Of a stretch of DNA of 64,000 bases, positions 8,627-60,107 are shown one piece after another. The notes under the pieces are model-generated. The model made no database searches and was not told where the DNA came from. It saw only the letters and a list, made by a program, of their open reading frames with translations. The position numbers and the translations under genes are program-made. The DNA is taken from NCBI GenBank assembly GCA_964389675.1, contig CAYMEV010000001.1:1-64000 (forward strand), in the 5' to 3' direction. How positions within the stretch are numbered: the stretch's first letter is position 1; the number at the start of each line of letters is the position of its first letter. This stretch comes from an uncultured Candidatus Sumerlaeota bacterium (GTDB taxonomy: Bacteria; CAYMEV01).

Positions 8627-9757
8627 ATGGAAACCAAAGAACTGGAAAAGCTGTCATCTGAAACAAATGCACAGATAACAAAGCTTGAATCAGATAAAGC
8701 CGGACTTGTACAAAAATTAGGCGAAGAATGCTCATCGCTGCCCAAAAAGGATATAAAGAATTCCAGGCTGAAGGATATAATTCAGGAAATTGAGCAAAGC
8801 CAGAAGGATATTAAAGCTGCAAACAAGGTAATAGAAAGTATCAGGCAAAAGAAGCTTGAGATAGAAAAACTTGATCAGGAACTAAAGGAAATAAGGGATA
8901 AGATAGATGAACTCAACCTTGTATTCGATGAAAAACAGTCTGCCATAGGCAGGGAATTCTACAGTCTGATACATGACAATCCTGATTACAGCACATTTAA
9001 GGACCTTTATGCAGACTATGAGAATACAAAAAAGGAAATATCAGATCTTCAGGAAAATTTAAGAGCTACTGAGGAAGAAGAGAAAGGGTTTTTCAAGAAG
9101 ATCAAAGAAAAATTCAATGTGATGATCATTAAAAATAATATTAAGACGAAAGAAAAAGAGCTGAACAATCTATATCCGGTTATCGGCAGAAACCTGATCC
9201 AGGGCGACTTTTTTGAAAAATTGAATGAACCTGAACATAAGGAACTCAAAAAACTCATTATTGACACCAAATCAAAGCTGGCAAAACAGCAGAGAGATGA
9301 AAAGGACAATATAATGCTCAAGGAGAAAAAGTCGGATGAGCTTGCCCAGATGATCCAGCATAATCAGCCTGAAGCCTTTATAAAGGAAAAGGAAAATGAA
9401 ATAAAGGCAATTGAAAAGGATGTATACCAGAAATATGCTGATGCCGGCCAGCTTATCTATGACAAGAAAATGACTGAACTTATCCAGAAAAAGGAGCATA
9501 AAGACATTTTCAATTCCATTGCAGAGATTGATAAGAATATAGGCAAGAAGAATCAGGAAATCGAGCAGATAAGCTTTGCAATTGAATATATCAACAAGAA
9601 TAAGATCCTTGCTGAACTTAAGAACAAAGAAGAAAGGATAAATAATATAATCGAACAGAACAAGCAGGAATTGAAGGCTATTCAGAATCAAATATCAGAA
9701 ACTGAAAAACAGGTAGAGATTACCAAAAACAGTGCGGGCAACTTTATTGAGATGTAA
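8627..9757 (+). CDS. Long coiled-coil protein
   Basis: 376 aa, K/E/Q/I-rich heptad pattern, AAGGAG RBS. Confidence 0.75.
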   Translation: METKELEKLSSETNAQITKLESDKAGLVQKLGEECSSLPKKDIKNSRLKDIIQEIEQSQKDIKAANKVIESIRQKKLEIEKLDQELKEIRDKIDELNLVFDEKQSAIGREFYSLIHDNPDYSTFKDLYADYENTKKEISDLQENLRATEEEEKGFFKKIKEKFNVMIIKNNIKTKEKELNNLYPVIGRNLIQGDFFEKLNEPEHKELKKLIIDTKSKLAKQQRDEKDNIMLKEKKSDELAQMIQHNQPEAFIKEKENEIKAIEKDVYQKYADAGQLIYDKKMTELIQKKEHKDIFNSIAEIDKNIGKKNQEIEQISFAIEYINKNKILAELKNKEERINNIIEQNKQELKAIQNQISETEKQVEITKNSAGNFIEM

Positions 9758-9784
9758 GGGGGAAGGGATTCCCCCTCTCTTTCT
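9757..9784 (+). terminator. Putative intrinsic terminator
   Basis: AGGGGGAA-ggga-TTCCCCCT stem followed by a pyrimidine tract. Confidence 0.55.
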
Positions 9785-9795
9785 GCAGTTATAGA

Positions 9796-44064: not shown

Positions 44065-44342
44065 GTGTCATTACTCCTTTCAAATAGAAAATGATATTTT
44101 CTTCCAGTTGTCATCTATTTATATATATACTTGAATCCCTGATTTTTCAAAGTCAAATCATCCTGTTTCCAAACTATTTTAATCCTCTTATGTCTAATTT
44201 TAATACTATAATTGCATAATCTCTCCTTTTTTAAATCAATAGCGGTCTTTTTTTTTGACATTCCTGCTTATAAATTTAATAATGAAAACAAAGGAATTAT
44301 TCCTTCTTTTCTTCTTAAAATTTCTTATATACGGGGGTGCAT

Positions 44343-45431
44343 ATGGAAGATATAAAGATTCTCGCAATAAATCCTGGATCTACTTCTACAAAAATAGCTG
44401 TCTTTGAATACAAGGACAGAAAACACAATCTAATTCTTAAAAAGAATATTGATCATCCGAGCGAAGAGATACAAAAATACCACAAGATCATAGACCAGTA
44501 CCATTTTCGTGCAGAACTCATAAAGTCAGCCCTGAAGGAAAATGGTATAGATATAAACAGCCTTTCCTGTGTTGTCGGCCGGGGGGGATTGTTTAAACCG
44601 GTAAGAAGCGGTACATATCTTGTTAATCAGAAAATGATGGATGATATCAAAAGCCCTGATACACTTGAGCATGCATCCAACCTCGGATGCCTTATGGCCT
44701 ATGATATTGCTGGCAGTATCGGAAAAAAGGCATTCATAGTCGACCCTGTCGTTGTTGATGAACTTGAGGACATAGCACGCTATTCAGGCCTTAAGAATTA
44801 TCCTCGCACAAGTATATTCCATGCGCTGAACCAGAAGGCAATTGCACTGAAATGTGCCGAAGATCATGGCAAAGACTACAGGGAACTCAATATGATAGTT
44901 GTACATCTTGGCGGTGGTATCACAATCGGGGCACATAAAAAGGGGCTTGTGGTTGACGTCAACAATGGCCTGACAGGAGAAGGGCCATTCTCCCCTGAAA
45001 GGGCAGGCGGCATAGCAGTATTTGATATAATTGAACTCTGTTTTTCAGAAGGCATGACAAAACAGAAGGCAAAAAAGGCTGTCGTTGGCAAGGGAGGAAT
45101 AGTCAACTACCTGGGTACCAATGATATGAGAGAGGTTGAAAACAGGGTTAAAAACGGGGACAGATATGCTGAGGCTGTCTTTGATGCAATGTGCTATCAG
45201 GTGACAAAAGAGATCGGGGCTATGACAGCAGCCGTTTTTGCAGGAAAAGTCGACTTTATTGTTCTTACAGGCGGAATAGCATACGACAGGAGGCTTGTCT
45301 CATTCATAGAAGAAAGGACAAAATTCATTGCACCTCTTAAGGCCTATCCAGGGGAAGATGAGATGATGGCCCTTTATCTGGGAGGGTTGAGAGTAATAAA
45401 AGGGATTGATAAAGAGCTTTCATATGAATAG
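44343..45431 (+). CDS. buk: Butyrate (branched-chain carboxylate) kinase
   Basis: INPGSTSTK, GRGG, HASNLG, DPVVVDE, HALNQKA, GPFSPER. Confidence 0.95.
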   Translation: MEDIKILAINPGSTSTKIAVFEYKDRKHNLILKKNIDHPSEEIQKYHKIIDQYHFRAELIKSALKENGIDINSLSCVVGRGGLFKPVRSGTYLVNQKMMDDIKSPDTLEHASNLGCLMAYDIAGSIGKKAFIVDPVVVDELEDIARYSGLKNYPRTSIFHALNQKAIALKCAEDHGKDYRELNMIVVHLGGGITIGAHKKGLVVDVNNGLTGEGPFSPERAGGIAVFDIIELCFSEGMTKQKAKKAVVGKGGIVNYLGTNDMREVENRVKNGDRYAEAVFDAMCYQVTKEIGAMTAAVFAGKVDFIVLTGGIAYDRRLVSFIEERTKFIAPLKAYPGEDEMMALYLGGLRVIKGIDKELSYE

Positions 45432-46170
45432 ATCAGGGTATTATACAGCCAGGGAAGGGCTATGGGCTTTTTTAGGAAACTACGGGAGCGGTAAAACTGA
45501 GATTGCAGTAAACTATGCAATTTCAGGCGCTTTTAACGGGACAGCCCCGGTTTCAATAATAGACCTGGATATAATCAATCCATATTTCAGGTCCAGAGAA
45601 GTGGAGGATATACTCCAAAAATACGATATCAATGTAATAAGCCCCAAAGGAGAACTAAAATATGCTGACCTCCCCATAATTCTTCCCAATGTCAAGAGTT
45701 CCATAAAGGATTTCAAAGGACTGCTTGTCCTGGACATTGGCGGTGAAGATACAGGGGCAAATATAATCAGGCCCTTTAAGCATTTTCTTGAAAAGGATAA
45801 TTCAAACATATGCATGGTCATAAACATGAAAAGGCCATTTACAAGCGATGAGAAAAGCATTCTGGAAACAAAAAGGAGAATAGAGGAAAAAAGCGAGCTG
45901 AGAATAGACTTTTTTATTAATAACACAAACCTGATAGAACAGACGGATGCTGAAATCATTACTAAAAGCCATAAGACAATAAAGAAAGCGGCAGAAGCTG
46001 CTAAGACACAGTTCCTGTTTACTGCAGTAATGAAGGAACATGTCTCTGCAATTAATTCATCAATAGAGCCGAATGAGCTTTTTGTTCTTGAAAGATTCAT
46101 GCTTCCGCCCTGGTATTCAGATATTCAGAGATTCAAACCTCTGAAGGACCGGAGATCATTTATAATATAA
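45424..46170 (+). CDS. P-loop ATP-binding protein of unknown function
   Basis: GNYGSGKTE Walker A, DLDIINPYFRSRE, ADLP, LDIGG; start taken at the ATG overlapping the buk stop. Confidence 0.75.
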   Translation: MNRSGYYTAREGLWAFLGNYGSGKTEIAVNYAISGAFNGTAPVSIIDLDIINPYFRSREVEDILQKYDINVISPKGELKYADLPIILPNVKSSIKDFKGLLVLDIGGEDTGANIIRPFKHFLEKDNSNICMVINMKRPFTSDEKSILETKRRIEEKSELRIDFFINNTNLIEQTDAEIITKSHKTIKKAAEAAKTQFLFTAVMKEHVSAINSSIEPNELFVLERFMLPPWYSDIQRFKPLKDRRSFII

Positions 46171-46190
46171 TATAAAAGGAGGATTTTTTA

Positions 46191-46460
46191 ATGCCAACAG
46201 TTAGGATAAAAAAGGACACCTGCAAGGGCTGCGAGCTTTGCGTCAACTTCTGTCCTAAGAAAGTACTCATGATGTCGGATGAATATACCGCGCTTAAGAA
46301 TCAGAACCCGCCCGACGATACCCTTGATGATCTTAATCTAAACGGGGAGATAAATTCCAAGGGATACAAATATGCTGTACTGGTAAAAGAAAGCGGCTGT
46401 ATAGGCTGTGCCACATGTTCCAGGGTATGCCCTGAAGTGGCGATCACTGTATACAAATAA
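46191..46460 (+). CDS. 2x[4Fe-4S] ferredoxin (oxidoreductase delta subunit)
   Basis: CKGCELCVNFCP and CIGCATCSRVCP; AGGAGG RBS. Confidence 0.9.
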   Translation: MPTVRIKKDTCKGCELCVNFCPKKVLMMSDEYTALKNQNPPDDTLDDLNLNGEINSKGYKYAVLVKESGCIGCATCSRVCPEVAITVYK

Positions 46461-46482
46461 TTAATATTAAGGAGAATTACAT

Positions 46483-47541
46483 ATGCAAAAGGTATTAATG
46501 AAAGGCTGCGAAGCCATAGGCGAAGCCGCGATAAAATCCGGCTGCAAATACTTTTTTGGATATCCGATTACACCGCAGAATGAAATCCCTGAGTACATGT
46601 CAAGAAGGCTTCCTCAGGTGGGTGGTGTATATCTGCAGTCAGAAAGTGAAGTTGCAGCAATAAATATGATTTTTGGCGGAGCTGGCGCAGGAATAAGGGT
46701 TATGACCTCTTCTTCTTCACCAGGTGTTTCTCTGTATTCGGAAGGTTTGTCATATATTGCTGGTGCAGCCCTGCCATGCCTTATAATTAATGTTATGAGG
46801 GGAGGCCCGGGGCTTGGAGGTATCCAGCCTTCACAATCGGATTATTTCCAGGCTACAAAGGGAGGCGGCCATGGGGACTACAGGCTTATAGTCCTTGCTC
46901 CTTCAACTGTCCAGGAAGCTGTTGACCTTGTATCAAAAGCATTTGACCTTGCCGATAAATACAGGAATCCCGCAATGATACTTGCTGACGGGATTATAGG
47001 CCAGATGATGGAACCAGTTGTATTTCCCGAAACAAGCCAGAAAGAATATGATAAAAGCTGGGCAACCACCGGAAGAAAGGGTGGAAGGCCGCAGAACATA
47101 GTGAAATCACTCCTGCTGGATCCTGAACAGCTTGAGAAATGGAACTGGGATTTAAAGAAAAAATACGATACTATCAGGGAAAATGAGCAGATTGCAGAGG
47201 AATATATGCTGGATGATGCAGAGTATCTTATTGCAGCATACGGAACAACTGCAAGGATATGCAGGACCTCAATACAGTCCCTGAGGAATGAAGGATACAA
47301 GGTCGGAATGCTAAGGCCCATATCACTGTTCCCGTTCCCTGAAAGGACTTTTGAAAAATACATAAACAGAGTGAAATTTATCTTTGATATAGAAATGTCC
47401 ACAGGACAGATGATTGAGGATGTAAAGCTTGCAACACAGTGCAAGCTTCCTGTTCACTTTTACGGCAGGACAGGCGGTATGGTACCTTCACCGGAGGAAA
47501 TTGCAGAAAAATTCAAGGAATTAGTTAAACAAGGAGATTAG
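46483..47541 (+). CDS. vorB: 2-oxoacid:ferredoxin oxidoreductase alpha subunit (VorB-type)
   Basis: FGYPITPQ, SESEVAA, TSSSSPG, RGGPGLG, KGGGHGD. Confidence 0.85.
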   Translation: MQKVLMKGCEAIGEAAIKSGCKYFFGYPITPQNEIPEYMSRRLPQVGGVYLQSESEVAAINMIFGGAGAGIRVMTSSSSPGVSLYSEGLSYIAGAALPCLIINVMRGGPGLGGIQPSQSDYFQATKGGGHGDYRLIVLAPSTVQEAVDLVSKAFDLADKYRNPAMILADGIIGQMMEPVVFPETSQKEYDKSWATTGRKGGRPQNIVKSLLLDPEQLEKWNWDLKKKYDTIRENEQIAEEYMLDDAEYLIAAYGTTARICRTSIQSLRNEGYKVGMLRPISLFPFPERTFEKYINRVKFIFDIEMSTGQMIEDVKLATQCKLPVHFYGRTGGMVPSPEEIAEKFKELVKQGD

Positions 47542-47543
47542 CA

Positions 47544-48308
47544 ATGGAAAATATAGAAAATATGAAAATTGTATTCCAAAAGACAGAATCCTTATATGAA
47601 AGGCCTACACACTACTGCCCGGGTTGCACTCATGGAATAGCCCACAGGCTTGTTGCCGAGGCAATAGATGAGCTTGGCGTGGCGGACAGGGCAGTTGGGG
47701 TTGCACCTGTAGGATGCAGTGTTCTTATGTATAATTATCTTAATGTTGATTTTCAGGAAGCCGCCCATGGAAGGGCCCCTGCCCTGGCGACGGGGATCAA
47801 GAGGGTAAGGCCTGACACTATTGTATTCACATATCAGGGTGACGGCGACCTTGCATCCATCGGTACTGCAGAGATTATCCACGCTGCAAACAGGGGTGAA
47901 AAGATTACAGTTATATTCATAAATAATGCTATCTACGGCATGACTGGCGGGCAGATGGCACCCACCACGCTTGTCGGGCAAAAAACATCCACATCGCCCT
48001 ATGGAAGGGACCCGGAGCTGATAGGTTACCCCATAAGGATGGCAGAGCTTCTTGCAACACTCAAGGCTCCGTCATATATCGTACGTGAATCACTGCACAA
48101 GCCTGCAAATATAATCAAGGCAAAAAAGGCTGTAAAGAAGGCTTTTGAAAACCAGGTCAAGGGTAAGCCATTCTCTTTTGTTGAACTGTTATCCACATGC
48201 CCCACAAACTGGGGGATGACTCCAATCCAGGCGCTTGACTGGCTGGAACAAAACATGATACCCTATTACCCTCTTGGCGAATTTAAAAATATAGATGGAG
48301 GAAATTAG
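47544..48308 (+). CDS. 2-oxoacid:ferredoxin oxidoreductase beta subunit (TPP-binding)
   Basis: HYCPGCTHG, HGRA, YQGDGD, NNAIYGMTGGQ, CPTNW. Confidence 0.92.
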   Translation: MENIENMKIVFQKTESLYERPTHYCPGCTHGIAHRLVAEAIDELGVADRAVGVAPVGCSVLMYNYLNVDFQEAAHGRAPALATGIKRVRPDTIVFTYQGDGDLASIGTAEIIHAANRGEKITVIFINNAIYGMTGGQMAPTTLVGQKTSTSPYGRDPELIGYPIRMAELLATLKAPSYIVRESLHKPANIIKAKKAVKKAFENQVKGKPFSFVELLSTCPTNWGMTPIQALDWLEQNMIPYYPLGEFKNIDGGN

Positions 48309-48310
48309 AT

Positions 48311-48847
48311 ATGTACTCTGATGTAATAATGGCAGGATTCGGCGGACAGGGAGTTATGCTCATAGGCAAGATACTGGCCTACTGCGGTATGATTGAAGAC
48401 AAACATGTAGTATGGATACCTTCATATGGGCCTGAAATGCGCGGAGGCACTGCAAACTGCACAGTTGTGGTCTCTGATGAACCCATTGCTTCGCCAATAA
48501 TAGCAAACCCTCATGCAATCGTTGTCCTCAATAAACCTTCCCTCGATAAATTTGAACCGAAAGTCAAAAAAAACGGACTGATAATAATAAACGAGACGCT
48601 TATTGACAGAAAGACAAACAGAGATGATGTGAAATGCCTGTACACCCCAGGCAATAGAATAGCCATGGAACTTGGCAATGCCAAGGCTACAAACATGGTC
48701 ATGTTCGGCACTTATATCGGCGCTACAAAGATAATCAGGAAAGAGAGCGCCATAAAAGGAATTGAGGATACCCTGAAATCAAAGCCCAAATTGGTTCCGC
48801 TTAATATACAGGCCTTCGAAAAAGGATATGAAATAGGCTTGCAATAG
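48311..48847 (+). CDS. 2-oxoacid:ferredoxin oxidoreductase gamma subunit
   Basis: AGFGGQG, PSYGPEMRGGTA, NMVMFG. Confidence 0.92.
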   Translation: MYSDVIMAGFGGQGVMLIGKILAYCGMIEDKHVVWIPSYGPEMRGGTANCTVVVSDEPIASPIIANPHAIVVLNKPSLDKFEPKVKKNGLIIINETLIDRKTNRDDVKCLYTPGNRIAMELGNAKATNMVMFGTYIGATKIIRKESAIKGIEDTLKSKPKLVPLNIQAFEKGYEIGLQ

Positions 48848-48963: not shown

Positions 48964-51900
48964 ATGAAAAAAGAGGATTTCAGAGATCTAAATCTTTTTA
49001 TGGACAAAGACCTGAATAATACAGCCTTCCTCAAAAAATCCGGGTTTGATGTAGAATATTTTAAGAAGGTCACAAATTCCCCAAATATTAAAAGCAAAAT
49101 AAAAAGCATATATCAAACCGGCATTTTCAGCTGTACCGAAGCCTTAAGGCTTTCAATCGCCATTTTTGAAGCCTTTTACACAAATAAGGGCAAGTCATGG
49201 ATCTTCAATACAGATGAAGAAAACCTTAAGAATATAATATATAATTTCAACCAGAGCCTTCTCTACCCTCATACCCTCATTGAATCAAATGCAGAGCTTG
49301 TAAATGACAATTATTTCCTGGGATTTTTTACCATTTTCGCAAGGATACTGAAAACATTCATAATTAATGCCAAGACCAGCCCCGAGAATAAATGGGAATA
49401 TAAATACCCGTACTATGGACTCATGACAGATGAGTATTCACAGTCCCGTTTCAAAAAGGAATATGATCAGTTTCTGGATGTATTCGACAAGCAGAATGTA
49501 TACGGGCTTATGAAAATGAGCCAGGAATGGAAAGGATACACAAGCCTCGATCATACGCTTGGTGTCTACAGCCTGTGCATGTTCATTGGCCTGCAGATGA
49601 AAAGGCTCGGCTTTCCCGTTGACCTTGCAATACTGTCAGGAGCCTCAATCGGCCATGATATAGGCAAGTACGGATGTGTTGGCGAAGAACTGAAGCAGAT
49701 AGCATATTATCATTATTTTTATACCAAAGAATGGTATGACAGGAATGGATTGTACAACCTCTCCCATTATGCTACAAACCACAGCACCTGGGACCTTGAA
49801 GAACTCAGGCTCCCAAATGAAACAATAATATTGATATATTCGGACTTCCGAGTAAAATCAAGAACATATCCCGACGGCTCGTCGCGCATGGCCATATACA
49901 GCAATAAAGAATCCTTCGATGTTATCAGAGATAAGCTTGATAACCTGGATGATAAAAAGCTGGACAGGTACAGAAGAGTGTACAGAAAACTTGAAGACCT
50001 GGAAAGAATGTTCATTACTCTCGGAATTAATACTGATGTTGAAAGCGGAATCAGCCTGGAGGACTATGGACAGAGGCACAGTGACTTCAATGCGATCTGT
50101 ATTGTTAACGGGAATGTAAACTCGGATTTTATAGGAATACTGCCTAATTCCCAGATACTGGATGCAGCAAAGACACTTGCAGTCGCACACAATATATTCG
50201 TCATGGATAAGATCAGGGATTCATTCTCTCTCAAAAGGCTTTTTGAAGATGCCAGGCAGGAAAAGACAAAGAACGATCTCAGGATCTATCTAAGCATTAT
50301 AGAAGCATATTCTGACTTTCTTACTCTTGAACAGAGAGAGCTTTGCATTGGCTTTCTCTTTGACCTTCTCAGCCACCCTGATGACGATATAAGGTATCAC
50401 AGCGCTGATACTATAGGCAAATTCCTCGCAGAGATGAGGGAAGCATACACCAGGTACCTCCCCCCCGGCAAAACGCACATGGTGATTGATAAATCTGACA
50501 AGTATCTCCTGAAGATATTTTCTCTGCTTGATTATGTTGAACCGTCAGACCCTGAGGGATATCTGACGGAAAAGAAGCTGTACAATGTCACAGTATCGCT
50601 TAGAAAGCTGCTTAAGACAGCAAAAGGTGAAAAGAAGGAAGAATTCGGCAAGCAGGTAATAAAAACCATCATTAAAAAGAGTGCAGGGGCAAAACCTCTT
50701 CAACTCCTGTATCTTACGGAGATAATATCTGATGCAAGCAGCAATATCAGCAATGAGAACCTGCTGGTGGCAATTCCGATGCTATTTGAGAACCTCTCGC
50801 ACAATGACAGAAGAATTAGGCTGATGACTCTCAGGGCTTTTCTGACATTAAGCAGAAGAGATCTCTGGAGGGACCTGGTCGATGAGCACAGAAGCAGATT
50901 ATGCGGTTCGATAAAAAGAATTCTTGAAATAGATGATAATCCCACTGAAACCTATTCATTATATATATTTCTCAATTCTCTTGATGAGGAAAGCAGGGAT
51001 AAGATCTGCAGTGAGATCAGCAAGGGCAACAGAGACAGAATAGGCCATATTCTGGAGAATATTGACATCAGGCCGATTTTCCTGAGAAATCTGAAGACCA
51101 GTACTCCATGGATTGAAAAGAAGATAAACTGCCAGATGCTTGTTGATATTGCACAGAAGCTTAAGCAAAAAGACCCCGAAAGCTCACTTATAATAGATAT
51201 TGCGATACACCTGGGCAATATCCTTAAAGTAAGCCAGTATGAAGGAACGAGGTTTCAGGCAGGCAGCTCCCTGCTTGAGCTGAGCAGGATGCTGAACCCT
51301 GCACAGCTTAACGAGATAAGCATAGAGCTTCTTAGAACCCTGGAGCAGGAATCCATGGGATTTACACATTATATACCAAGGGTCCTGGGGCAGATAGTAG
51401 CCAAACTGCCGATCGAAGAATTCCTGGAGATATACAATGACATCAAGGAAAAGATCAAGGTAGGGAGCCCTCCATTAAAGGAGCTTTACCTGAAAACGCT
51501 TTCCATAATCCTTTCCCATCTGGATAATGTACAGCACCAGCAGCACAGACTGGATATGAAAATTCTGGGGCTTTTTACAGGTTCTCTCTGTGATATGAAT
51601 CAATATACAAAACAGAAAGCACATTATATAATAGGGTCAAGGATCTTCGGGTCAAAATTTCTTCCGTCAGAAGAGAAAAAAAAGATACTCTGTGCTTCCC
51701 TGAAAAAGATTTTGTCTCTGATTTCAAACAAACCAAATGATTATGTGGACCTTTTCTATTCAGCAACACTGCTGAACAATATTTACATGTTTATATCAGC
51801 CTATGAGTTTGCCAATGGCAGCCTTGACATGCCTAAAGACAAGATTGTCGCCTTCTTCCCGGGAACTTTCGACCCATTCAGCCTGAGTCACCTTGAAATA

Positions 51901-53991
51901 GTCAAAACCTGCCAGAAGGAGGGTTTCGATATCTTTATACAGGTGGATGAGTTCTCATGGAGAAAGAGGACACTTCCTCCGGCAATCAGGAAGAATATAA
52001 TACGCCTCAGCACTTCTCATCTCTTAAACGCATTTATATACCCTGAGATACCGCCTGTAAATCTCGCAAATGAAAATGACCTTCATAGATTATTGAAAGC
52101 TTTTCCCAATAGAGAATTGTATCTGGTTGCCGGAGCTGATGTAATTGTCAATGCATCAGCGTACAAATCCGAGAATAAAAGCCTGATAAAGGAACTCAAC
52201 CATTTTATCGTATTCAGGAAAGACCCTCAGGGGAGGCATATACACAATAATCCTGATTTCAAGAGGATTATCGATAAAATAAAGGGTAATATTATTCTTA
52301 GAGAGCTTGAAGATGTTTTCAATTATATAAACTCAACAAAAATAAGAGACCTTATAGATACGGACGAATCAATAGACCACCTTGTGGATGCAAGGTCAGC
52401 TTCATATATAACTGACAATAACCTTTATATCAGACAGCCTGAAGAAAAACAGAATATCGAACTCTGGGATTTCAAGATAGAGATCAGTAGCATAAGGGAA
52501 ACGCCTGATATTTTTAGCTCACTTCCCTCAAGGCTTTTATCATGTTTTCTATCCAGGAAAAAAAGGTATAATATTTCCTTTGAAAGCCTTTTAAGCGACC
52601 TTAAAAAGAAAAATGCTCATCTGTTCATTATAAAAAGGGCAACACATAACAGGGAATTTATTGGGGTAATCCTGTTTTATAAAATAAGGGAAGATGGGAT
52701 TTTCGGTATTATCAAAGATCCTGCTGTTTCTAAATTTCAAAGGAACAATACCTTCGGCAAAGTTGCCTATATTGATCCAGTATTTATAGAAAATGACAGC
52801 CATATATTCGTCAAAAGCAGGTTTCATCTTTATTTAATCAAAGAAGGCTATCTCTTTGCCCTACAGGAAACAGATCTAAACCTTCTGAAGGAAAAGAACA
52901 GTCTTGCCAGAATTGAAAAAACCGAACACAACTACAATAAAATAATGGGATATTATCAGATCCCTCATGAATTCAAAAGAAAGGAATACAGTTTAAAGCT
53001 CGGCATCATAGACCTTCGAAAACCTCTGATCTTTATAAACAACCTGGAAGATGTACTAAAGGTCCCCTTCAGTCAGCATAGAAAGATCAGGACAAGGATC
53101 CGTAAAAACAGGGAGGCTATACTTAAAATACTGTCAAAAATAAATAAGGAAAGCGCAATAATCTCGCTGAGTTATAAGGACATTGTATTCAATATTATGG
53201 AAAGGATATCCCTCTTAAACGGACAAAACCCCCAGGACCAGTTCCTGTGCATATTATTCGGTAATATATTAGGCAAATATATTGTACCGGGAACAATCAG
53301 CAAAGCGCTTCACGCAGAAAGAGTAGTCAGTTCTGAAGGGAAGCTGATAGGCTTTACACATTCCAAACACTATTACTCCATACCCATACAGTTAAAGACA
53401 ATCAAAGCATTTGGTAAAAGGACCATTCTTTCAGATATACTTGTGCACTCAGCCAGGAGGATCCTTAATATACAGAAAGCAGCAATGAATGTGGGGGTTA
53501 AGATCGAGCGTGTTGTTTCAGGAATTGTTTCCGGACTGGCTAAAGAAATAATGGATGCAAATAATATTGCATCAGAATCAGTATTTTATATCCCCAGGCT
53601 GCACAGCTGGTATGAAGAGCATATGATATATCCGTTTGCAGGAGGGGACAGCATTATTGATTACATGGAACTCCAGGAGCCATTAAACAGGTCAATGCTC
53701 TATATACTGCCGTTCTGCCCCTTTGAACAGCAGCATAATATCAGTGTGAATGACAGGATTGTCTTCTCCCAGTATGCCCTTGAAAATGCCTATAACCTTT
53801 TCAGGGATATAGAGGAGATCTACCTTGAATACAAGAAGAAGAACCTTATCCTTGAAAATATACAGGAAGTACTGGAGAATCCCAAAATTCCCGTATATAA
53901 CCCGTTGCATACCCCCAATAACCAGGAGATGCTCTCTGATCTGTTATTGAAAGATATAGACACACTCAAAAGATTCCATATCATTGCATAA
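48964..53991 (+). CDS. Giant multidomain protein: HD domain, HEAT-like repeats, NadD-like nucleotidyltransferase, possible GNAT, degenerate PRTase-like C-terminus
   Basis: DHTLGV/GHDIGK/YSDFR; FPGTFDPFSLSH, LVAGAD, NSTKIR; ILSDILVHSA; AGGAGG RBS. Confidence 0.75.
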   Translation: MKKEDFRDLNLFMDKDLNNTAFLKKSGFDVEYFKKVTNSPNIKSKIKSIYQTGIFSCTEALRLSIAIFEAFYTNKGKSWIFNTDEENLKNIIYNFNQSLLYPHTLIESNAELVNDNYFLGFFTIFARILKTFIINAKTSPENKWEYKYPYYGLMTDEYSQSRFKKEYDQFLDVFDKQNVYGLMKMSQEWKGYTSLDHTLGVYSLCMFIGLQMKRLGFPVDLAILSGASIGHDIGKYGCVGEELKQIAYYHYFYTKEWYDRNGLYNLSHYATNHSTWDLEELRLPNETIILIYSDFRVKSRTYPDGSSRMAIYSNKESFDVIRDKLDNLDDKKLDRYRRVYRKLEDLERMFITLGINTDVESGISLEDYGQRHSDFNAICIVNGNVNSDFIGILPNSQILDAAKTLAVAHNIFVMDKIRDSFSLKRLFEDARQEKTKNDLRIYLSIIEAYSDFLTLEQRELCIGFLFDLLSHPDDDIRYHSADTIGKFLAEMREAYTRYLPPGKTHMVIDKSDKYLLKIFSLLDYVEPSDPEGYLTEKKLYNVTVSLRKLLKTAKGEKKEEFGKQVIKTIIKKSAGAKPLQLLYLTEIISDASSNISNENLLVAIPMLFENLSHNDRRIRLMTLRAFLTLSRRDLWRDLVDEHRSRLCGSIKRILEIDDNPTETYSLYIFLNSLDEESRDKICSEISKGNRDRIGHILENIDIRPIFLRNLKTSTPWIEKKINCQMLVDIAQKLKQKDPESSLIIDIAIHLGNILKVSQYEGTRFQAGSSLLELSRMLNPAQLNEISIELLRTLEQESMGFTHYIPRVLGQIVAKLPIEEFLEIYNDIKEKIKVGSPPLKELYLKTLSIILSHLDNVQHQQHRLDMKILGLFTGSLCDMNQYTKQKAHYIIGSRIFGSKFLPSEEKKKILCASLKKILSLISNKPNDYVDLFYSATLLNNIYMFISAYEFANGSLDMPKDKIVAFFPGTFDPFSLSHLEIVKTCQKEGFDIFIQVDEFSWRKRTLPPAIRKNIIRLSTSHLLNAFIYPEIPPVNLANENDLHRLLKAFPNRELYLVAGADVIVNASAYKSENKSLIKELNHFIVFRKDPQGRHIHNNPDFKRIIDKIKGNIILRELEDVFNYINSTKIRDLIDTDESIDHLVDARSASYITDNNLYIRQPEEKQNIELWDFKIEISSIRETPDIFSSLPSRLLSCFLSRKKRYNISFESLLSDLKKKNAHLFIIKRATHNREFIGVILFYKIREDGIFGIIKDPAVSKFQRNNTFGKVAYIDPVFIENDSHIFVKSRFHLYLIKEGYLFALQETDLNLLKEKNSLARIEKTEHNYNKIMGYYQIPHEFKRKEYSLKLGIIDLRKPLIFINNLEDVLKVPFSQHRKIRTRIRKNREAILKILSKINKESAIISLSYKDIVFNIMERISLLNGQNPQDQFLCILFGNILGKYIVPGTISKALHAERVVSSEGKLIGFTHSKHYYSIPIQLKTIKAFGKRTILSDILVHSARRILNIQKAAMNVGVKIERVVSGIVSGLAKEIMDANNIASESVFYIPRLHSWYEEHMIYPFAGGDSIIDYMELQEPLNRSMLYILPFCPFEQQHNISVNDRIVFSQYALENAYNLFRDIEEIYLEYKKKNLILENIQEVLENPKIPVYNPLHTPNNQEMLSDLLLKDIDTLKRFHIIA

Positions 53992-54011
53992 ATATATAAG
54001 GAGCATTTAAT

Positions 54012-55094
54012 TTGGATATTAATAAAATTGAATATAGTTTAGAATCATATGGCGAGATACTGCCATGTCCGGATTTAAGAACAGATCCTCTGGATACACT
54101 GATAAGGACAGAAGAATATATCGCAGACAGCAGCATATATATTAACAAAAAAAGGGAGAAAGAGATATTCAGAGTATTCAACCATCAAAATAAAAAGAAG
54201 AAGATACTGGTCTACGGGCTCGGAAATGTTGGAGGAACAGTGCTCATATCATTAAGATTGCTTCTAAACAGTGAGTTTGCTGAACATATTGCAATCTATG
54301 ACAAAAATCCAAAACTTGCTGAAAGATACGAACTTGAGGTAAATCAGATCCACCCGCCTAAACCAGAAAAGCAGGTGGAGGTAAGGATACTTGAAAATTT
54401 TGATAAGATCCCTGAATATGATATAATCGTTTTTGCAGCCGCTGCACACATTCCTCCCCTGGAATCAGCAAGGATCAATGTCCGGGATATACAGTTTCCC
54501 GGGAACAGAAGGATACTTGACAGCCTTATAGAACCTCTTAAGAACACTGGCTTTATGGGTAATATCATAATTGTAAGTGACCCTGTTGATATATTATGCA
54601 CATACCTGTTCAATAAGCTAAACATCCTGTCTTCACAGATAACAGGAATGGGGCTTGGTGTCATGGCTGCAAGAGCTAATTATATACTTGAAAAACAGGG
54701 GTATCATGAATTTTATGAAAAGGGCCAGATCTTCGGGCCCCATAATGAAGGTGTCATTGCAATACCCGATAAGGATAGATCAACTAAGGAAGAGATTATT
54801 AACCTCAGTTATAATATAGAAAACCTGAATTTCATTGTCAGGGAAAAGGGATACTATCCGTATATAGCACCAGCGATCAGCTCTGTTGCATATAATATAC
54901 TCTATGCACTTCTTGGACATGATATACTCTCCTGCGTCTATATAGACGGCATATACTGGGGATTTAGATCAAGGTATCTCAATGGCCTCTGGTATCCGGT
55001 AATACAGACAACAAATATAAAGCATATGGATCTTATCAGGGACAGATTTCTTGATTTTAAGAAAAGGACATCCCATGTCCTGAATCAGATATAA
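54012..55094 (+). CDS. Lactate/malate dehydrogenase-like protein (divergent active site)
   Basis: GLGNVG Rossmann motif, IYD, IVSDPVD, GLGVMAAR, FGPH; TTG start after AAGGAG. Confidence 0.75.
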   Translation: MDINKIEYSLESYGEILPCPDLRTDPLDTLIRTEEYIADSSIYINKKREKEIFRVFNHQNKKKKILVYGLGNVGGTVLISLRLLLNSEFAEHIAIYDKNPKLAERYELEVNQIHPPKPEKQVEVRILENFDKIPEYDIIVFAAAAHIPPLESARINVRDIQFPGNRRILDSLIEPLKNTGFMGNIIIVSDPVDILCTYLFNKLNILSSQITGMGLGVMAARANYILEKQGYHEFYEKGQIFGPHNEGVIAIPDKDRSTKEEIINLSYNIENLNFIVREKGYYPYIAPAISSVAYNILYALLGHDILSCVYIDGIYWGFRSRYLNGLWYPVIQTTNIKHMDLIRDRFLDFKKRTSHVLNQI

Positions 55095-55213: not shown

Positions 55214-55789
55214 TTAAACTTCAGACCATGTCCCATAAAATTCACAATAAGGGTCCCCAAGGGTAACACACTTTCTTTCCGTCATTTCAACAGTTTTCAA
55301 ATGGCAGGCTTCTATTATGCCCTCGCAATACCCCATCATGGAAAAGCAGAAGGCCCTGTGGGGAGTCTTGAAATCATAAAGTTTTATACATCCTGAATCA
55401 GGCTCTTCGGAGGATACTTCCAGCCATCCGTGGTCATGTATCTGCTTCCACATTCTTGGTGCACGCATCAGGGTAAACAGAGGATTCCCAAGCCGCAAAA
55501 AAAGCGCAAGAGCTCTCGGGACTCCCTTTAGTGCCTGATAATGCCCTATATTTCTGCATATCTGATAATTGCCCTTTCCCAGCACTCTATCCGATGCTTT
55601 CAGAAAATCTATATAAGCCTTTTCAGAATACCAGGAGCCTGAAAGGATACTCCTGTCGATGATCTCCTTTGATTCAGGCTCCAGAAGATCAATCGCCTTC
55701 GTCAGGGCATCTTCGCCGTATACATCCCTGATATGCTCTTTTGCAAGCCTTACAGATAAACCTCTGATATTTGCCTTGATATTTGTTAT
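55214..55789 (-). CDS. V4R-like / myxobacterial DUF2378-like protein, probable ATA start
   Basis: Frame open from 55813; ILSGSWYS motif; C-terminal C...GY...C-x5-C; AAGGAG 7 nt before ATA. Confidence 0.65.
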   Translation of the reverse strand: MTNIKANIRGLSVRLAKEHIRDVYGEDALTKAIDLLEPESKEIIDRSILSGSWYSEKAYIDFLKASDRVLGKGNYQICRNIGHYQALKGVPRALALFLRLGNPLFTLMRAPRMWKQIHDHGWLEVSSEEPDSGCIKLYDFKTPHRAFCFSMMGYCEGIIEACHLKTVEMTERKCVTLGDPYCEFYGTWSEV

Positions 55790-55958: not shown

Positions 55959-58900
55959 TCAGTTAACAAAAGCATCTTTTTTAATTCTGTCTATCATCAG
56001 TTTATATTCATAATTCCTGGTTTTTTTATAAAGCTCACCAAGGCTTTTTAATGCTTCTGTCCTGCAATTTTCTGAGCCATCAAGCATATAGATCTCAAAA
56101 TTCACAAGTGCATTCTCCTGCAGGCATCCTTCATATTTCTTTTTGAGTTTTTTTAAGATATCTAATGCAATTTTCTTATCTTTATTTGCATGAATTCTGG
56201 CATGTAATATTTTTGAATCAAAAAGGAAGCTCTTATTTCCCAATTCTTCAGCTATTTTCTCAGCCTCAGTTATAAAGTCCAGGGCTGTCTCATAACCCCC
56301 GGTTTCAAATGAGATCCTTGCCTTTTCAATAAATATGAAACAGGAATCATACCTGACATTTACCCTTTTTGAAAGCTTCAGTGATCTATCAATAAAGCCC
56401 GATGCACTTTCCAGCTCATTCATCATCCTGTAAACAGATGCAATATTGCAGTAAGCAAGGCTTTCAGCCTTATAATCGCCTAATTCCTTTGCAATTGACG
56501 CAGTGGAATTATATAAAGCAATTGACCTTTTATAATTTCCTTTCAGCCTGTATAACCAGGCTTTATATGAACTAAGTTCGCATAATGCCGGCTTATCACC
56601 AATTTCCTGCGCTATTTTTCTGCTTTCTTCAATATATTTAAGGCTGTTTAAAAAATCACCTTTTTCAATGAGGGTTTTGCCCATATTTGCTGTAGAAAGT
56701 ATGATCCCCTTTTTATTTGCAATCTCTTTTGCTGTTTTCAGCTGTATTTCAAAGCTTGCTAATGCTTCGTCAAATTTCCCCATATCACTGTATAATACTC
56801 CTATGTTCCCTGTAATAAGGCACAGGCCCAATTTATCTCCAATTTCAATAAAAAGGGCTTTAGCCTTCTCATAACGCTCTAATGCTTCTTCCATATAACC
56901 CTGGACATGGTAGAGTATTCCAAGGTTACCGTTTACCGTGCTTAAGTTACCCTTATCACCAATCTCTTTTGATATTTCTTCTTTCATGAGATAATACTTC
57001 AGGGCCTTATCCATATTGCCTGTATTTGAATATACACGCCCTATACTGCCCAGCGCGCTGGCTGAATTCCTTTTATTCCCGCTCTTTTCAGCAGTTTCAT
57101 AGGAAGCCCTGTAATACTCCATTGCCTTCTCATAGTTTCCCTGCTCAACATAAGCATTGCCCATATTCCCTGAAGCTGAGCTCATTCCAGTCATATCCCC
57201 GGTTTCTTCAGCAGAATGAAGCTGATATAAGAAGTACTGCCTGGCCTCATCATACTTATTCTGGCGGAAATAGAGCTTTCCCATATTCCCGTATGATATT
57301 GCAAGTTCATTTTTATTCCCAAATTCTACAGCTGTTTCAATGGTTTCTCTGCATATATCATAAGCCTCGTCCATATCTCCTTTCATATGGAGTAAGCATA
57401 TAAGCTGGTTTTGAAACTTTAACTGATATAGGATATTATTCATGCTTTTTGCTTTTTTTATAAGGCCCCTTAATTCATCTATGCACTGATCTGTCCTGCC
57501 TATTAACTCGAGTATAGTTATCCTGTGAAAATTATATTCAAAAAGCTTTTCGCTTTCATCGCACATTTGCAGTAATACATCAAAGCATTCCAGTGCTTTC
57601 TGGTTCTCAAACCTTTTTGTGAAATAGAAGGCTGACTTATTATAATACTCAATTGCTTTGCTTTTTTCTTCTGCATTATAGTAATGATATGCAATCTCAT
57701 AATATCTGTTTTCAGATCCCTTATATGCCTCTTCAATATTCCTGGCAGCATATAAATGACACTTTCTAAGCGTTGATTTTAGCTGCATTTCATAAGCTGT
57801 TTTCTGCAATAGCGCATGTTTGAATATATATTTAAGCAGGGAGAGCTTCATCCATATGTTTTTATTCTCTAACTGCTCAAGCTTTTCCTGTTCATGCACA
57901 GTCTGCGGAAGCAAACCAAGCCCCTTTATAATCTTCCGGAGTATGGCTATCTCAAACTCCCTTCCCAGTACTGATGCAACTTTCACTATCTGCTTTAGAT
58001 CTGTTACAAGCCTGTCAATCCTGGCAATGATTATTGAATATATGCTCTCAGGAATTGATATATCCTTCAGGGATTTACCCATCAGCCTGTTTTCCTTAAT
58101 ATACTGAATAATCTGCTCAAGATAAAAAGGGTTATTTTCTGCTTTTGAAATAATCAGCTTTTTTAAGGGTTCTTCTGCTTTGATATGTTCATTTATCAAT
58201 GATTCAGCTTCCCTGTCATTAAGCCTGTCAATTACTATTTCGCGCTGGACTATCTCTTTATCAACCTTCAGGACAGGCTTTCCGCCATCATCATCGAAAC
58301 GGCTTGTTCCTGCAATCAGGAAAGGATAATCATTCCCTGTCCTGCATAACAGCCTGAATACTTCCTGAGTACCTTCATCCAGGTACTGTATATCTTCTAT
58401 GCATATTATCAATGGCTTCAACAGGCTTAATGCCTTTAAGAGTTCATTATAGGCTGTTACGGTATTTTCATACCTCCCCCTGGAATCAAGGGAAGAATAA
58501 TATGGATCATTAATATCCAGGCCCAGCTGTGCTGAAATTACTGATTTCAGCCTGATAAGTTCACCCAGAACATTATCAGCCCTGGCATCCTTAAGCTTTT
58601 TCAGGCTTTTCAGCATTCTTTCATAGACTGAATTGAACTGCTCTGGATCTGCCTTTCCTGATTGCCTGAAATAGTTTAAGGCAAAATATTTAAGAGGGTT
58701 GAAGCCTGTTTTAAGCAGATTATCTGATTGCATGAATGCTGCAAACGCGCTTTCTTTCCTGACAAATTCGTCAAGCAGACGGCTTTTGCCAATTCCAGCT
58801 TCTCCGTATATGATTATGATACCTCCGAATTTTCCGTTATATACAGGTTTTGCACTTTCTTTTAAAAGGCTTAATTCATCCTGCCTGCCTATCATTTCAT

Positions 58901-60107
58901 TCCTGTAGAAGGCCGGACCCTGATCATGGCTTTGCTCCAGGAGCCTGTAAACCGGAATTGGCCTGCTTTTCCCCTTAAAGGACAGCCTGCCGATATATAC
59001 GCTTTTATAATCATTCCTTATAGATTTCGCAATGGACCGGGAAAACCATATCTCCCCCGCAGGAGCCTTTGCCATAAACCTTGCCGCCTGATTCACAGTA
59101 TCACTCAATGCTGTATATTCGCACCTTTCATCTGTTCCTGTAAACCCTGTAAATGCCATTCCTGAAGTCATCCCCGCTTTTATTCTATTTCCAGCAAATA
59201 ACTTTACAGCTTTAATAAAATCAACTGACCTTCTTATATTACCCTCATAGTATACCGGTGCACCAAAGATGATAAGCATGACTCCTCCCTTGTCCCCGAA
59301 CTCAACACGGTTAAAATAGCCCCCGAAATCATCGCAGTATCCTGTTATATTTTTTATAAGCTCATCAAGCTCATCATGCATTAATGAAGAATCAAAATAT
59401 ATGAACAGAGTGACTACTTTTCTGAATTCACCTGTCTGTCCACCCTGAAATAATTGTTCAGGAAAAAAAAGGGATGCAATCTCTTCAGGTATAAAATCAA
59501 TCCTGCGGCGAACCTGCGGCTTGATCCTTCTGCATGATATAAGCCTGTATCTTTTGTCTCTGATCAGATCTGCTTTAACTTCCTCTTCTCCAACCAGAGT
59601 GTCATCTATGATAATTTCTGATCCCTCGCAGAATTTCTGGTTTTCAATGCTGTTACTTATTGTCTCACCCCTGAAATAATAGACCCTGTGCCTGTCTCCA
59701 AGTATACCCCATTCCACGTTCCCTGATGATAGGCTCAACTTGAAAGAAAGCTCATATGTCCCGAACCTGGTATTCTGGATTTCTATCTGCCCCAGGATCT
59801 CCCTGATCCTTAAGGAACAGGATAAGGCATTAAGGATCCCTGTATCCTTAAAGATCACTGTAAATGCATCCCCTGCAAAACCGGACACAAATCCCCCGAA
59901 CAGGTGAATTGTGCTTATTAGAGGGTCAAAGACATTATTAAGTATCTTTGCAAGTATCTCAGCTCCCTCGGTCCCTTTCTCCATCAGCTTTTCTGTCATT
60001 GGAGTAAACCCGGAAATGTCAAGATGCATTATAACTGCATAGAAACTGCCTTCACACCTTCTGGAAGAAACCATTTCAGAAATAAAACCGGGCAGCAGAT
60101 TCTTCAT
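55959..60107 (-). CDS. Class III adenylate cyclase (two domains) plus STAND ATPase plus TPR repeats
   Basis: LDISGFT, FAGDA, GDKG, YTALSDTVNQAAR; GEAGIGKS Walker A; ICIED Walker B; many TPRs. Confidence 0.88.
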   Translation of the reverse strand: MKNLLPGFISEMVSSRRCEGSFYAVIMHLDISGFTPMTEKLMEKGTEGAEILAKILNNVFDPLISTIHLFGGFVSGFAGDAFTVIFKDTGILNALSCSLRIREILGQIEIQNTRFGTYELSFKLSLSSGNVEWGILGDRHRVYYFRGETISNSIENQKFCEGSEIIIDDTLVGEEEVKADLIRDKRYRLISCRRIKPQVRRRIDFIPEEIASLFFPEQLFQGGQTGEFRKVVTLFIYFDSSLMHDELDELIKNITGYCDDFGGYFNRVEFGDKGGVMLIIFGAPVYYEGNIRRSVDFIKAVKLFAGNRIKAGMTSGMAFTGFTGTDERCEYTALSDTVNQAARFMAKAPAGEIWFSRSIAKSIRNDYKSVYIGRLSFKGKSRPIPVYRLLEQSHDQGPAFYRNEMIGRQDELSLLKESAKPVYNGKFGGIIIIYGEAGIGKSRLLDEFVRKESAFAAFMQSDNLLKTGFNPLKYFALNYFRQSGKADPEQFNSVYERMLKSLKKLKDARADNVLGELIRLKSVISAQLGLDINDPYYSSLDSRGRYENTVTAYNELLKALSLLKPLIICIEDIQYLDEGTQEVFRLLCRTGNDYPFLIAGTSRFDDDGGKPVLKVDKEIVQREIVIDRLNDREAESLINEHIKAEEPLKKLIISKAENNPFYLEQIIQYIKENRLMGKSLKDISIPESIYSIIIARIDRLVTDLKQIVKVASVLGREFEIAILRKIIKGLGLLPQTVHEQEKLEQLENKNIWMKLSLLKYIFKHALLQKTAYEMQLKSTLRKCHLYAARNIEEAYKGSENRYYEIAYHYYNAEEKSKAIEYYNKSAFYFTKRFENQKALECFDVLLQMCDESEKLFEYNFHRITILELIGRTDQCIDELRGLIKKAKSMNNILYQLKFQNQLICLLHMKGDMDEAYDICRETIETAVEFGNKNELAISYGNMGKLYFRQNKYDEARQYFLYQLHSAEETGDMTGMSSASGNMGNAYVEQGNYEKAMEYYRASYETAEKSGNKRNSASALGSIGRVYSNTGNMDKALKYYLMKEEISKEIGDKGNLSTVNGNLGILYHVQGYMEEALERYEKAKALFIEIGDKLGLCLITGNIGVLYSDMGKFDEALASFEIQLKTAKEIANKKGIILSTANMGKTLIEKGDFLNSLKYIEESRKIAQEIGDKPALCELSSYKAWLYRLKGNYKRSIALYNSTASIAKELGDYKAESLAYCNIASVYRMMNELESASGFIDRSLKLSKRVNVRYDSCFIFIEKARISFETGGYETALDFITEAEKIAEELGNKSFLFDSKILHARIHANKDKKIALDILKKLKKKYEGCLQENALVNFEIYMLDGSENCRTEALKSLGELYKKTRNYEYKLMIDRIKKDAFVN

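Follow-up and report, generated by a model that had tools for sequence, protein, structure and literature searches.

The window analysed here is a stretch of 64,000 nucleotides (nt) from an uncultured Candidatus Sumerlaeota bacterium (assembly GCA_964389675.1, contig CAYMEV010000001.1, positions 1 to 64,000 of the forward strand). The gene in question lies at 54012..55094, encodes a protein of 360 amino acids (aa) related to lactate and malate dehydrogenases (LDH and MDH) and follows a gene for a protein of 1675 aa, called here the giant gene. A first-pass annotation of the window had described this LDH-like protein as a partner of the giant protein with a rewired active site. The features of the two genes, all on the + strand, are as follows.

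48964..53991, +, giant partner gene, 1675 aa, with its TAA stop at 53989-53991
53998..54003, +, Shine-Dalgarno-like AAGGAG, 8 nt 5' of the TTG (direct reading of the sequence)
54012..55094, +, LDH-like gene, 360 aa, TTG start, stop included (list of open reading frames and translation)
54012..54191, +, N-terminal extension, residues 1-60, missing in canonical LDH/MDH (alignment)
54216..54236, +, dinucleotide-binding motif GLGNVGG, residues 69-75 (G69, G71, G74)
54300..54302, +, D97 in IYDKN (residues 95-99), the acidic residue after strand 2
54438..54494, +, substrate loop AAAHIPPLESARINVRD (residues 143-159) plus Q161 (alignment)
54483-54485, +, R158, the Arg109 equivalent, retained, after a 5-residue loop insertion
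54492-54494, +, Q161 at the Leu112 position, changed
54576..54590, +, SDPVD, residues 189-193, with D190 (54579-54581) in place of Asn140 (alignments)
54657..54674, +, GVMAAR, residues 216-221, with M218 (54663-54665) in place of Asp168 (alignments)
54672-54674, +, R221, the Arg171 equivalent, retained
54735..54746, +, GPHN, residues 242-245, with H244 (54741-54743), the His195 equivalent, retained

Fold, active site and family of the LDH-like protein

The stop of the giant open reading frame (ORF) and the TTG of the LDH-like gene are separated by a gap of 20 nt (53991 to 54012), as the first-pass annotation had it. The TTG start is supported by homologues of 56-60% identity, which begin at the same point (IxxIEYD). 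The + strand between the two genes showed no terminator-like site, and the 26 promoter-like sites in the region were not above the number in shuffled sequences (20.2 +/- 4.9). Sequencing rows containing this stretch numbered eight, all of DNA, with no RNA sequencing run listed; two of the eight contained at least half of the sampled words and were labelled marine sediment metagenome.

In Pfam the LDH-like protein matched Ldh_1_N only (residues 64-202, 2.8e-9, 37.6 bits against a cut-off of 27), with no match to Ldh_1_C at E<=0.01, and it fell below the cut-offs of the NCBIfam models for L-LDH (TIGR01771, 49 bits vs 303.55) and MDH (NF004863, 36.9 bits vs 283). The best sequence match in the PDB was an LDH (3.2e-9). 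An AlphaFold2 model built from a 15-sequence family alignment reached a pLDDT of 92.6 and a pTM of 0.92, and every match that Foldseek listed for it was an L-LDH or an LDH-derived structure of the LDH/MDH family; the top hits had E values of 1e-16 to 1e-14 and the best of them, 3pqd_B, an E value of 1.5e-16 and a target-normalised TM of ~0.75 over ~326 aligned columns, identity to these LDH matches being 14-19%. From these matches and the confidence of the model, the predicted structure firmly shows a complete LDH fold with ~60 extra N-terminal residues. The extension had been noticed at first pass and is seen both in the start of the Ldh_1_N match at residue 64 and in the alignment to five canonical genes; in the model it forms strands at residues 2-6 and 41-45 and helices at 26-30 and 46-58, with a pLDDT of 86-96 over the block, and is packed confidently on the core. 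The homologues from Clostridia carry a longer extension in the alignment. We place the protein inside the LDH/MDH superfamily as a new variant, outside the enzyme families of LDH and MDH proper. Glycoside hydrolase family 4, which likewise has an LDH-like fold, was considered as well; the top structural hits were LDHs throughout.

Residues were mapped by HMMER alignments to 7w8a and 1ldn and by a MAFFT alignment with the five canonical LDH/MDH genes, which were hits (E 1e-6 to 4e-8) of ordinary LDH/MDH strength and length from genomes of other families, and both routes agreed. The nucleotide-binding GxGxxG and Asp, described at first pass as intact, are G69/G71/G74 and D97; an acidic residue of the D97 type makes the adenosine-ribose contact in NAD-specific Rossmann enzymes. 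The changes from NPVD to DPVD and from LDxxR to VMAAR, with Met for the catalytic Asp, were likewise confirmed by the alignments around D190 and M218. Two of the earlier statements needed amendment. The change from GEHG to GPHN holds for the window and not for the family, in which position 245 is Gly in 116 of 123 members, so that most relatives read GPHG and GPHN is specific to the window lineage. The substrate loop is present at residues 143-159, with its last Arg, R158, and not R154 as the conserved equivalent of Arg109. This loop is longer than the canonical one and cannot be aligned residue by residue, the stretch 143-153 lacks a conserved Gln or Arg, and R154 is not conserved. About nine residues are deleted before the segment YPYIAP, which stands in for the 236-246 wall.

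In the excerpted text of Boucher et al. 2014 (PMC4109310), the catalytic residues are Arg109, Asp168, Arg171 and His195, and Leu112, Asn140 and Asp168 belong to the first shell, within 6 Å of the substrate. On the present mapping and this shell list, three first-shell positions have thus been changed, and the carboxylate clamp, the polarising Arg and the proton-transfer His have been retained. Set beside canonical L-LDHs (3pqd of Bacillus subtilis, 1ldn and 9dq7), the protein is alike in its whole-chain fold, its GxGxxG and acidic residue and its equivalents of Arg109, Arg171 and His195, but differs in having Met168, Asp140 and Gln112, a loop that is longer by five residues and has no recognisable Gln102, the ~9-residue deletion and the 60-aa extension; it also scores far under the curated cut-offs, and its gene is co-inherited with the giant gene. 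From mutants of Bacillus stearothermophilus LDH (Asn140Asp and variants at Asp168) it has reportedly been argued that a net imbalance of charge is not tolerated in the substrate vacuole, in which case D168M and N140D together would preserve the charge count.

An exhaustive profile search of 1.84 billion representatives, with clusters at 50% identity, returned 770 representatives at E<=1e-3, 434 at E<=1e-10 and 190 at E<=1e-30; a word-indexed search returned only seven proteins, that of the window included. Conservation was scored over the 123 members of at least 290 aa out of 155, from which P0002 was excluded as identical to the window protein. R158 (121/123), Q161 (120/123), N165 (121/123) and P148 (118/123) were nearly invariant, as were M218 (121/123), R221 (122/123) and H244 (117/123), and D190 was found in 121 members with Glu in the other two. 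The glycines G71 and G74 were present in 119 and 120 members and D97 in 109. All seven residues of the signature D97-R158-Q161-D190-M218-R221-H244 occur in the window protein and in 103 of the 123; of the 20 deviants, 12 differ at D97 alone and most of the other eight are truncated or are low-scoring entries from the tail. A pattern that is near-invariant over ~190 clusters at 50% identity is not due to chance, and, as far as sequence conservation can tell, the rewired pocket is firmly shown to be under strong purifying selection. No publications on the family or the operon were found, which is not proof that there are none, most subscription journals lying outside the literature covered.

The family also includes aberrant forms. 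L024 9794-11707 (+) and P0138 represent one of 593-637 aa, which lacks His244 and has a long tail of low complexity; the 637-aa relative in L024 has Glu at position 190 and Leu at position 244. Another, P0050, is 470 aa long and has a GNAT domain (Acetyltransf_10) fused in front, and kinship of this domain with the C-terminal region of the giant protein was rejected (hhalign probability 0.5%). Two homologues, G286:C2:31627-32715 and G431:C20:60466-61581, carry one in-frame stop each (TAA and TAG, respectively), which could reflect pseudogenes, sequencing errors or recoding.

Linkage to the giant gene and the domains of its product

The distribution of the LDH-like gene was found not to be independent of that of the giant gene. 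In the class of G041 the LDH-like profile matched 21 of 301 genomes and the giant profile the same 21 of the 300 scored, and in the family of G042 both genes were found in the same 13 of 151 genomes; no genome in these two samples had just one of the two. Each sample includes its seed (G041 or G042), which had been chosen for having the pair, and because the seeds are included and related genomes are not independent no P value is given. The pair was adjacent in 19 of the 21 and 12 of the 13 genomes, or 31/34. A distance of 5.5-5.8 kb separates the giant gene from the LDH-like gene in G076 and G255, and the intervening stretch (L054 7918-13236 and L055 7243-12446) encodes an ammonium transporter and a three-subunit glutamate synthase (GATase_2, Glu_synthase with Fer4, and GXGXG); in G430 the two genes lie on different contigs.

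A genome scan returned 17 loci. In L009, a metagenome-assembled genome (MAG) of the same genus, a giant homologue of 75% identity lies upstream of an LDH-like homologue of 59%, with ~630 nt between the two that contain a 147-aa ORF at 9350-9793 (+) without a family match. All 12 Clostridia MAG loci with enough upstream DNA have a giant homologue of 1537-1587 aa (~27% identity) directly upstream on the same strand, and the longest LDH-like ORFs of Clostridia often overlap the end of the giant ORF. The cut C-terminal part of a giant homologue is visible in L016 and L020, and L014 is cut at the contig end. In L024 the divergent 637-aa relative is preceded by a small HD_5 protein, and its genome, G495, was the one exception found among the genomes searched, having this relative (187 bits) but giving no match to the giant profile at E<=1e-5. 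A tie between retention of the His and presence of the giant gene is no more than a hint, as it comes from this single genome of unknown completeness. The Acidobacteria locus L025 was rejected as a member of the family, its match being 41 residues long and at chance level and neither gene being found in the genome at E<=1e-5. Among 40 genomes of other families near G000, the genome of the window, only G001 of the same genus has a family member; the other 39 are labelled as sharing only the domain with it, and the organism thus appears to belong to a sparsely sampled lineage.

Relatives are also encoded on at least 536 metagenome stretches, many of them from human gut samples. Eighty of these loci formed 43 clusters at 80% identity, of which 38 were informative and five had too little upstream DNA. 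The giant gene ends within 700 nt upstream in 35 of the 38, and in one it lies 3.3 kb upstream with a gene for an SNF2-type helicase in between. The two remaining clusters showed no giant gene in the upstream DNA examined (1.0-6.9 kb; 3.1 kb in L102). The first of these two clusters comprises 17 informative loci and has an asparagine synthase gene downstream, and several of its contig names point to the human gut. A second, lone copy of the giant gene was seen in G184 (L073, G184:C9, 6664-11724 (-)), without an LDH-like or flavoprotein gene beside it and adjoining a DAGK_cat/YegS_C kinase-like gene.

Linkage of the LDH-like gene to the giant gene is near-absolute, and the LDH-like protein is firmly shown to be functionally tied to the giant protein. 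The proposal that the two are partners, put forward at first pass, is strongly supported by the same 21 and the same 13 genomes and by same-strand adjacency in most lineages. A complex prediction with one portion of the giant protein, its C-terminal 518 aa, run without controls, gave a score of 0.00 against a mark of 0.32, which speaks neither for nor against a complex.

Homologues of the giant protein are 1537-1686 aa long. By Pfam and NCBIfam it contains an HD domain, HEAT-like repeats, a NadD/NMNAT-like nucleotidyltransferase (~962-1157), a weak GNAT-like region and a phosphoribosyltransferase-like (PRTase-like) C-terminus, and its profile matched NMNAT, PPAT and a HEAT protein in the PDB. 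The HD domain was found in 11 of 13 homologues and the CTP_transf_like or NadD-like domain in all 13, with its motifs GTFDPFSxGH and SSTxIR invariant or nearly so. The C-terminal model has a pLDDT of 61 and matched type I phosphoribosyltransferases in Foldseek at ~3e-4 over ~150 residues, and in the window protein the acidic pair of this fold reads SD and not DD. A canonical NadD is encoded elsewhere in the window genome (178 bits, cut-off 112), so the NadD-like domain of the giant protein is a paralogue and not the housekeeping enzyme. The genome also encodes an Ldh_2 enzyme and D-2-hydroxyacid dehydrogenases, the LDH-like protein being its only Ldh_1_N match; given these other enzymes, the module is neither housekeeping NAD synthesis nor the sole 2-hydroxyacid dehydrogenase.

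A similar known arrangement is NadD-YqeK, a pair or fusion in Firmicutes and mycoplasmas; proofreading of NadD products by its HD hydrolase is described as demonstrated in the excerpted text of Haas et al. 2022 (PMC9426524). The giant protein likewise joins an HD phosphohydrolase to a NadD-like adenylyltransferase, but differs from NadD-YqeK, as described in those excerpts (PMC9426524), in being 1537-1686 aa long, in having HEAT-, GNAT- and PRTase-like parts, in occurring alongside a canonical NadD and in being tied to the LDH-like protein and, in Clostridia, to an FMN_red/iron-sulfur protein. This combination of a PRTase-like fold, an NMNAT-like domain and an HD hydrolase is what would be expected if the LDH-like protein were an enzyme acting on a nucleotide-linked intermediate of the giant protein, in a series leading from the PRTase-like part through the adenylyltransferase to the redox step and building or repairing an unusual NAD-like dinucleotide or cofactor. 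The canonical NadD elsewhere would leave the domain of the giant protein free for another substrate, and genes related to NAD adjoin the module in several lineages (NadE, NAD(P)HX dehydratase, an isochorismatase-family protein and ECF S-components, see below). This scheme is nevertheless rather improbable. With the equivalents of Arg171 and Arg109 retained, a bulky nucleotide would fit less well than a small carboxylic acid, the PRTase-like call depends on a model of low pLDDT and a modest E value, and the acidic pair is altered in the window. It also counts against the scheme that we know of no such NAD-like cofactor.

The third gene and the neighbourhood of the module

A third gene, encoding 345-365 aa, comes after the LDH-like gene in 27 of 27 Clostridia loci. 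Its product matches FMN_red (up to 7.7e-22), with the motif CxxCx4Cx8C invariant, and its N-terminal ~150 aa have no family match. Read from this motif, the product would be an iron-sulfur flavoprotein-like protein. It resembles the Isf-type iron-sulfur flavoproteins in its FMN_red domain and Cys motif, but differs from them in the extra ~150-aa N-terminal domain. The third gene is absent beside the pair in the window, in L009 and in the metagenome locus L075, and the window genome has just a generic 203-aa FMN_red ORF on another contig (1.1e-7).

Besides the three genes of the module, no gene of the neighbourhood is conserved. On the same strand and within 250 nt of the module there are glutamate dehydrogenase (L064/65/67/71, L118 and L134), split glutamate synthase with Amt (L054 and L055), asparagine synthase (L092, L095 and L112), glutamine-dependent NAD synthetase, NadE (L015), an NfnAB-like pair with PFOR (L068), NAD(P)HX dehydratase (L071 and L128), an isochorismatase-family protein (L132), ECF S-components (L054 and L055, in the gene upstream of the giant gene), 2-oxoacid:ferredoxin oxidoreductases (the window, L009 and L123) and arginine-pathway genes (L105 and L103), and many unrelated genes also adjoin the module. 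One may read in these a loose theme of NAD(P)H, ferredoxin and glutamate or ammonia metabolism, which may mirror the common genes of these genomes.

Upstream of the giant gene in the window lies the following group, identified by Pfam and NCBIfam.

44337..48847, +, butyrate kinase, 254-aa ORF and four-subunit 2-oxoacid:ferredoxin oxidoreductase (VOR) with a VorB-type alpha subunit

The butyrate kinase scored 498 bits (cut-off 289) and VorB 568 bits (cut-off 399) in NCBIfam, and the arrangement is common to the window and L009 only. The 254-aa ORF (45406-46170 (+)), flanked by the genes for butyrate kinase and the delta subunit of the oxidoreductase, occupies a place at which one might look for a phosphate butyryltransferase; neither Pfam nor NCBIfam gave it a match at E<=0.01, and its counterpart in L009 is 68% identical. 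Downstream on the opposite strand are a 123-aa V4R-domain protein (55214-55585 (-)) and a 1382-aa protein with a partial cyclase domain, AAA_16 and TPR repeats (55959-60107 (-)), neither of which was among the window ORFs matched in the comparison with L009.

With genes for butyrate kinase and a VorB-type oxidoreductase upstream in the same orientation, the question arises whether the LDH-like protein is an ordinary stand-alone L-2-hydroxyacid dehydrogenase (LDH/MDH/HicDH-like) that reduces the branched-chain 2-oxoacids handled by these neighbours, its place beside the giant gene being incidental. Being the only Ldh_1_N match in its genome would fit such a role. The long loop, apparently without Gln or Arg at 102, also recalls the HicDH clade, in which position 102 is not Gln or Arg and the 102-109 catalytic loop has insertions, features that are given as signs of altered substrate specificity in the excerpted text of the authors (PMC4109310). 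However, that clade, as described there, keeps Arg109, Asp168, Arg171 and His195 (PMC4109310), whereas the LDH-like family has Met168 in place of Asp168 and Asp140 in place of Asn140. The protein scores far below the NCBIfam cut-offs for such enzymes, and the butyrate kinase and VOR neighbours are found only in the window and L009, whereas linkage to the giant gene spans Clostridia and 35 metagenome lineages. An ordinary dehydrogenase is thus very improbable, and the example of branched-chain 2-oxoacids given at first pass is weak, the pair standing beside other genes in Clostridia.

Function of the module

It is quite possible, although we would stop short of calling it probable, that the LDH-like protein is a dedicated NAD(H)-binding oxidoreductase subunit of an uncharacterised module built around the 1675-aa protein, that it is still catalytic and that its substrate is a small acid. 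Catalysis has probably been retained, to judge from the residues: those that carry out the chemistry are near-invariant, the loss of Asp168 is matched by an Asp in the first shell, and a redox protein is attached in Clostridia. R221, placed as Arg171, would hold a carboxylate beside C4 of the nicotinamide, R158, placed as Arg109, would polarise the C2 oxygen or nitrogen, and H244, placed as His195, would transfer a proton, its acidic partner now standing at position 140 (Asp) and no longer at 168 (Met). Since Gln has replaced Leu112, the loop is longer by five residues and apparently lacks Gln or Arg102, and the 236-246 wall is shortened, the substrate is expected to be neither pyruvate nor oxaloacetate but another compound with a carboxylate, of the 2-oxo, 2-hydroxy or possibly 2-imino type. 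In Clostridia electrons may pass to or from the iron-sulfur-flavoprotein-like product of the third gene. The LDH-like and giant proteins would work as one unit, and the module may concern pyridine-nucleotide and redox homeostasis linked to ferredoxin and nitrogen metabolism.

Dehydrogenase folds have also been reused as NADH sensors, e.g. CtBP and Rex, and like these the LDH-like protein would be a Rossmann dehydrogenase scaffold on a larger regulatory machine. Of 123 members, 121 have Met in place of the Asp of the His-Asp dyad, the gene is co-inherited with that of a large HEAT-scaffold protein, and recurrent same-strand neighbours, for which there is no enrichment statistic, use 2-oxoglutarate, glutamine or NAD(P)H. 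All this would suit a non-catalytic or slow sensor subunit that signals the NADH/NAD+ ratio, a 2-oxoacid such as 2-oxoglutarate, or both to the giant protein and so controls its hydrolase and nucleotidyltransferase activities. Such a role, raised at first pass as the alternative to a dehydrogenase with new specificity, is unlikely, but is to be taken seriously. CtBP and Rex belong to other families (the D-2-hydroxyacid dehydrogenase fold and the Rex fold), whereas the substrate-site Arg and His of the LDH-like protein are near-invariant, and R158, R221 and H244 would be superfluous in a pure NAD(H) sensor. The loss of Asp168 together with the gain of an Asp at 140 looks like chemical compensation and not decay, and the iron-sulfur flavoprotein attached in Clostridia suggests a flow of electrons.

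Several observations weigh against a catalytic subunit of a single module, the reading preferred here. Asp168 is listed as catalytic in the excerpts of Boucher et al. (PMC4109310), so the LDH-like protein may be a binding protein, and that D190 stands in for Asp168 is something we infer from the first-shell membership of Asn140 in the same excerpts (PMC4109310). In G430 and in two metagenome lineages the two genes do not lie side by side. An electron hand-off to the flavoprotein cannot be universal, as the window lineage and L075 lack its gene beside the pair, and the same-strand neighbours vary widely and name no pathway.

In a bolder form of the catalytic reading, strict anaerobes, Clostridia of the human gut among them, would have an undescribed pyridine-nucleotide machine of three proteins, with the LDH-like protein as its redox part. 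Asp140 and Gln112 would fit the pocket to a positively charged or nitrogen-bearing group at C2, and the substrate could be a 2-imino acid, a 2-amino acid or an acid that the giant protein makes in nucleotide-linked form. This is speculative, and a little more doubtful than the nucleotide-linked scheme above. If true, the making, proofreading or breakdown of an NAD-like dinucleotide would be coupled to NAD(H), to electrons at the level of ferredoxin and to nitrogen status.

In the textbook view of the LDH/MDH superfamily, the specificity residues alone change, on a constant catalytic set (Arg109, Asp168, Arg171 and His195). The LDH-like family, with its ~190 clusters, keeps three of the four catalytic residues and has the acidic one moved. 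Once identified, its substrate would tell whether a His-Asp dyad can be reassembled with the acid at a different position, and would offer a first way into an operon that is conserved among anaerobes and separate from ordinary NAD synthesis.

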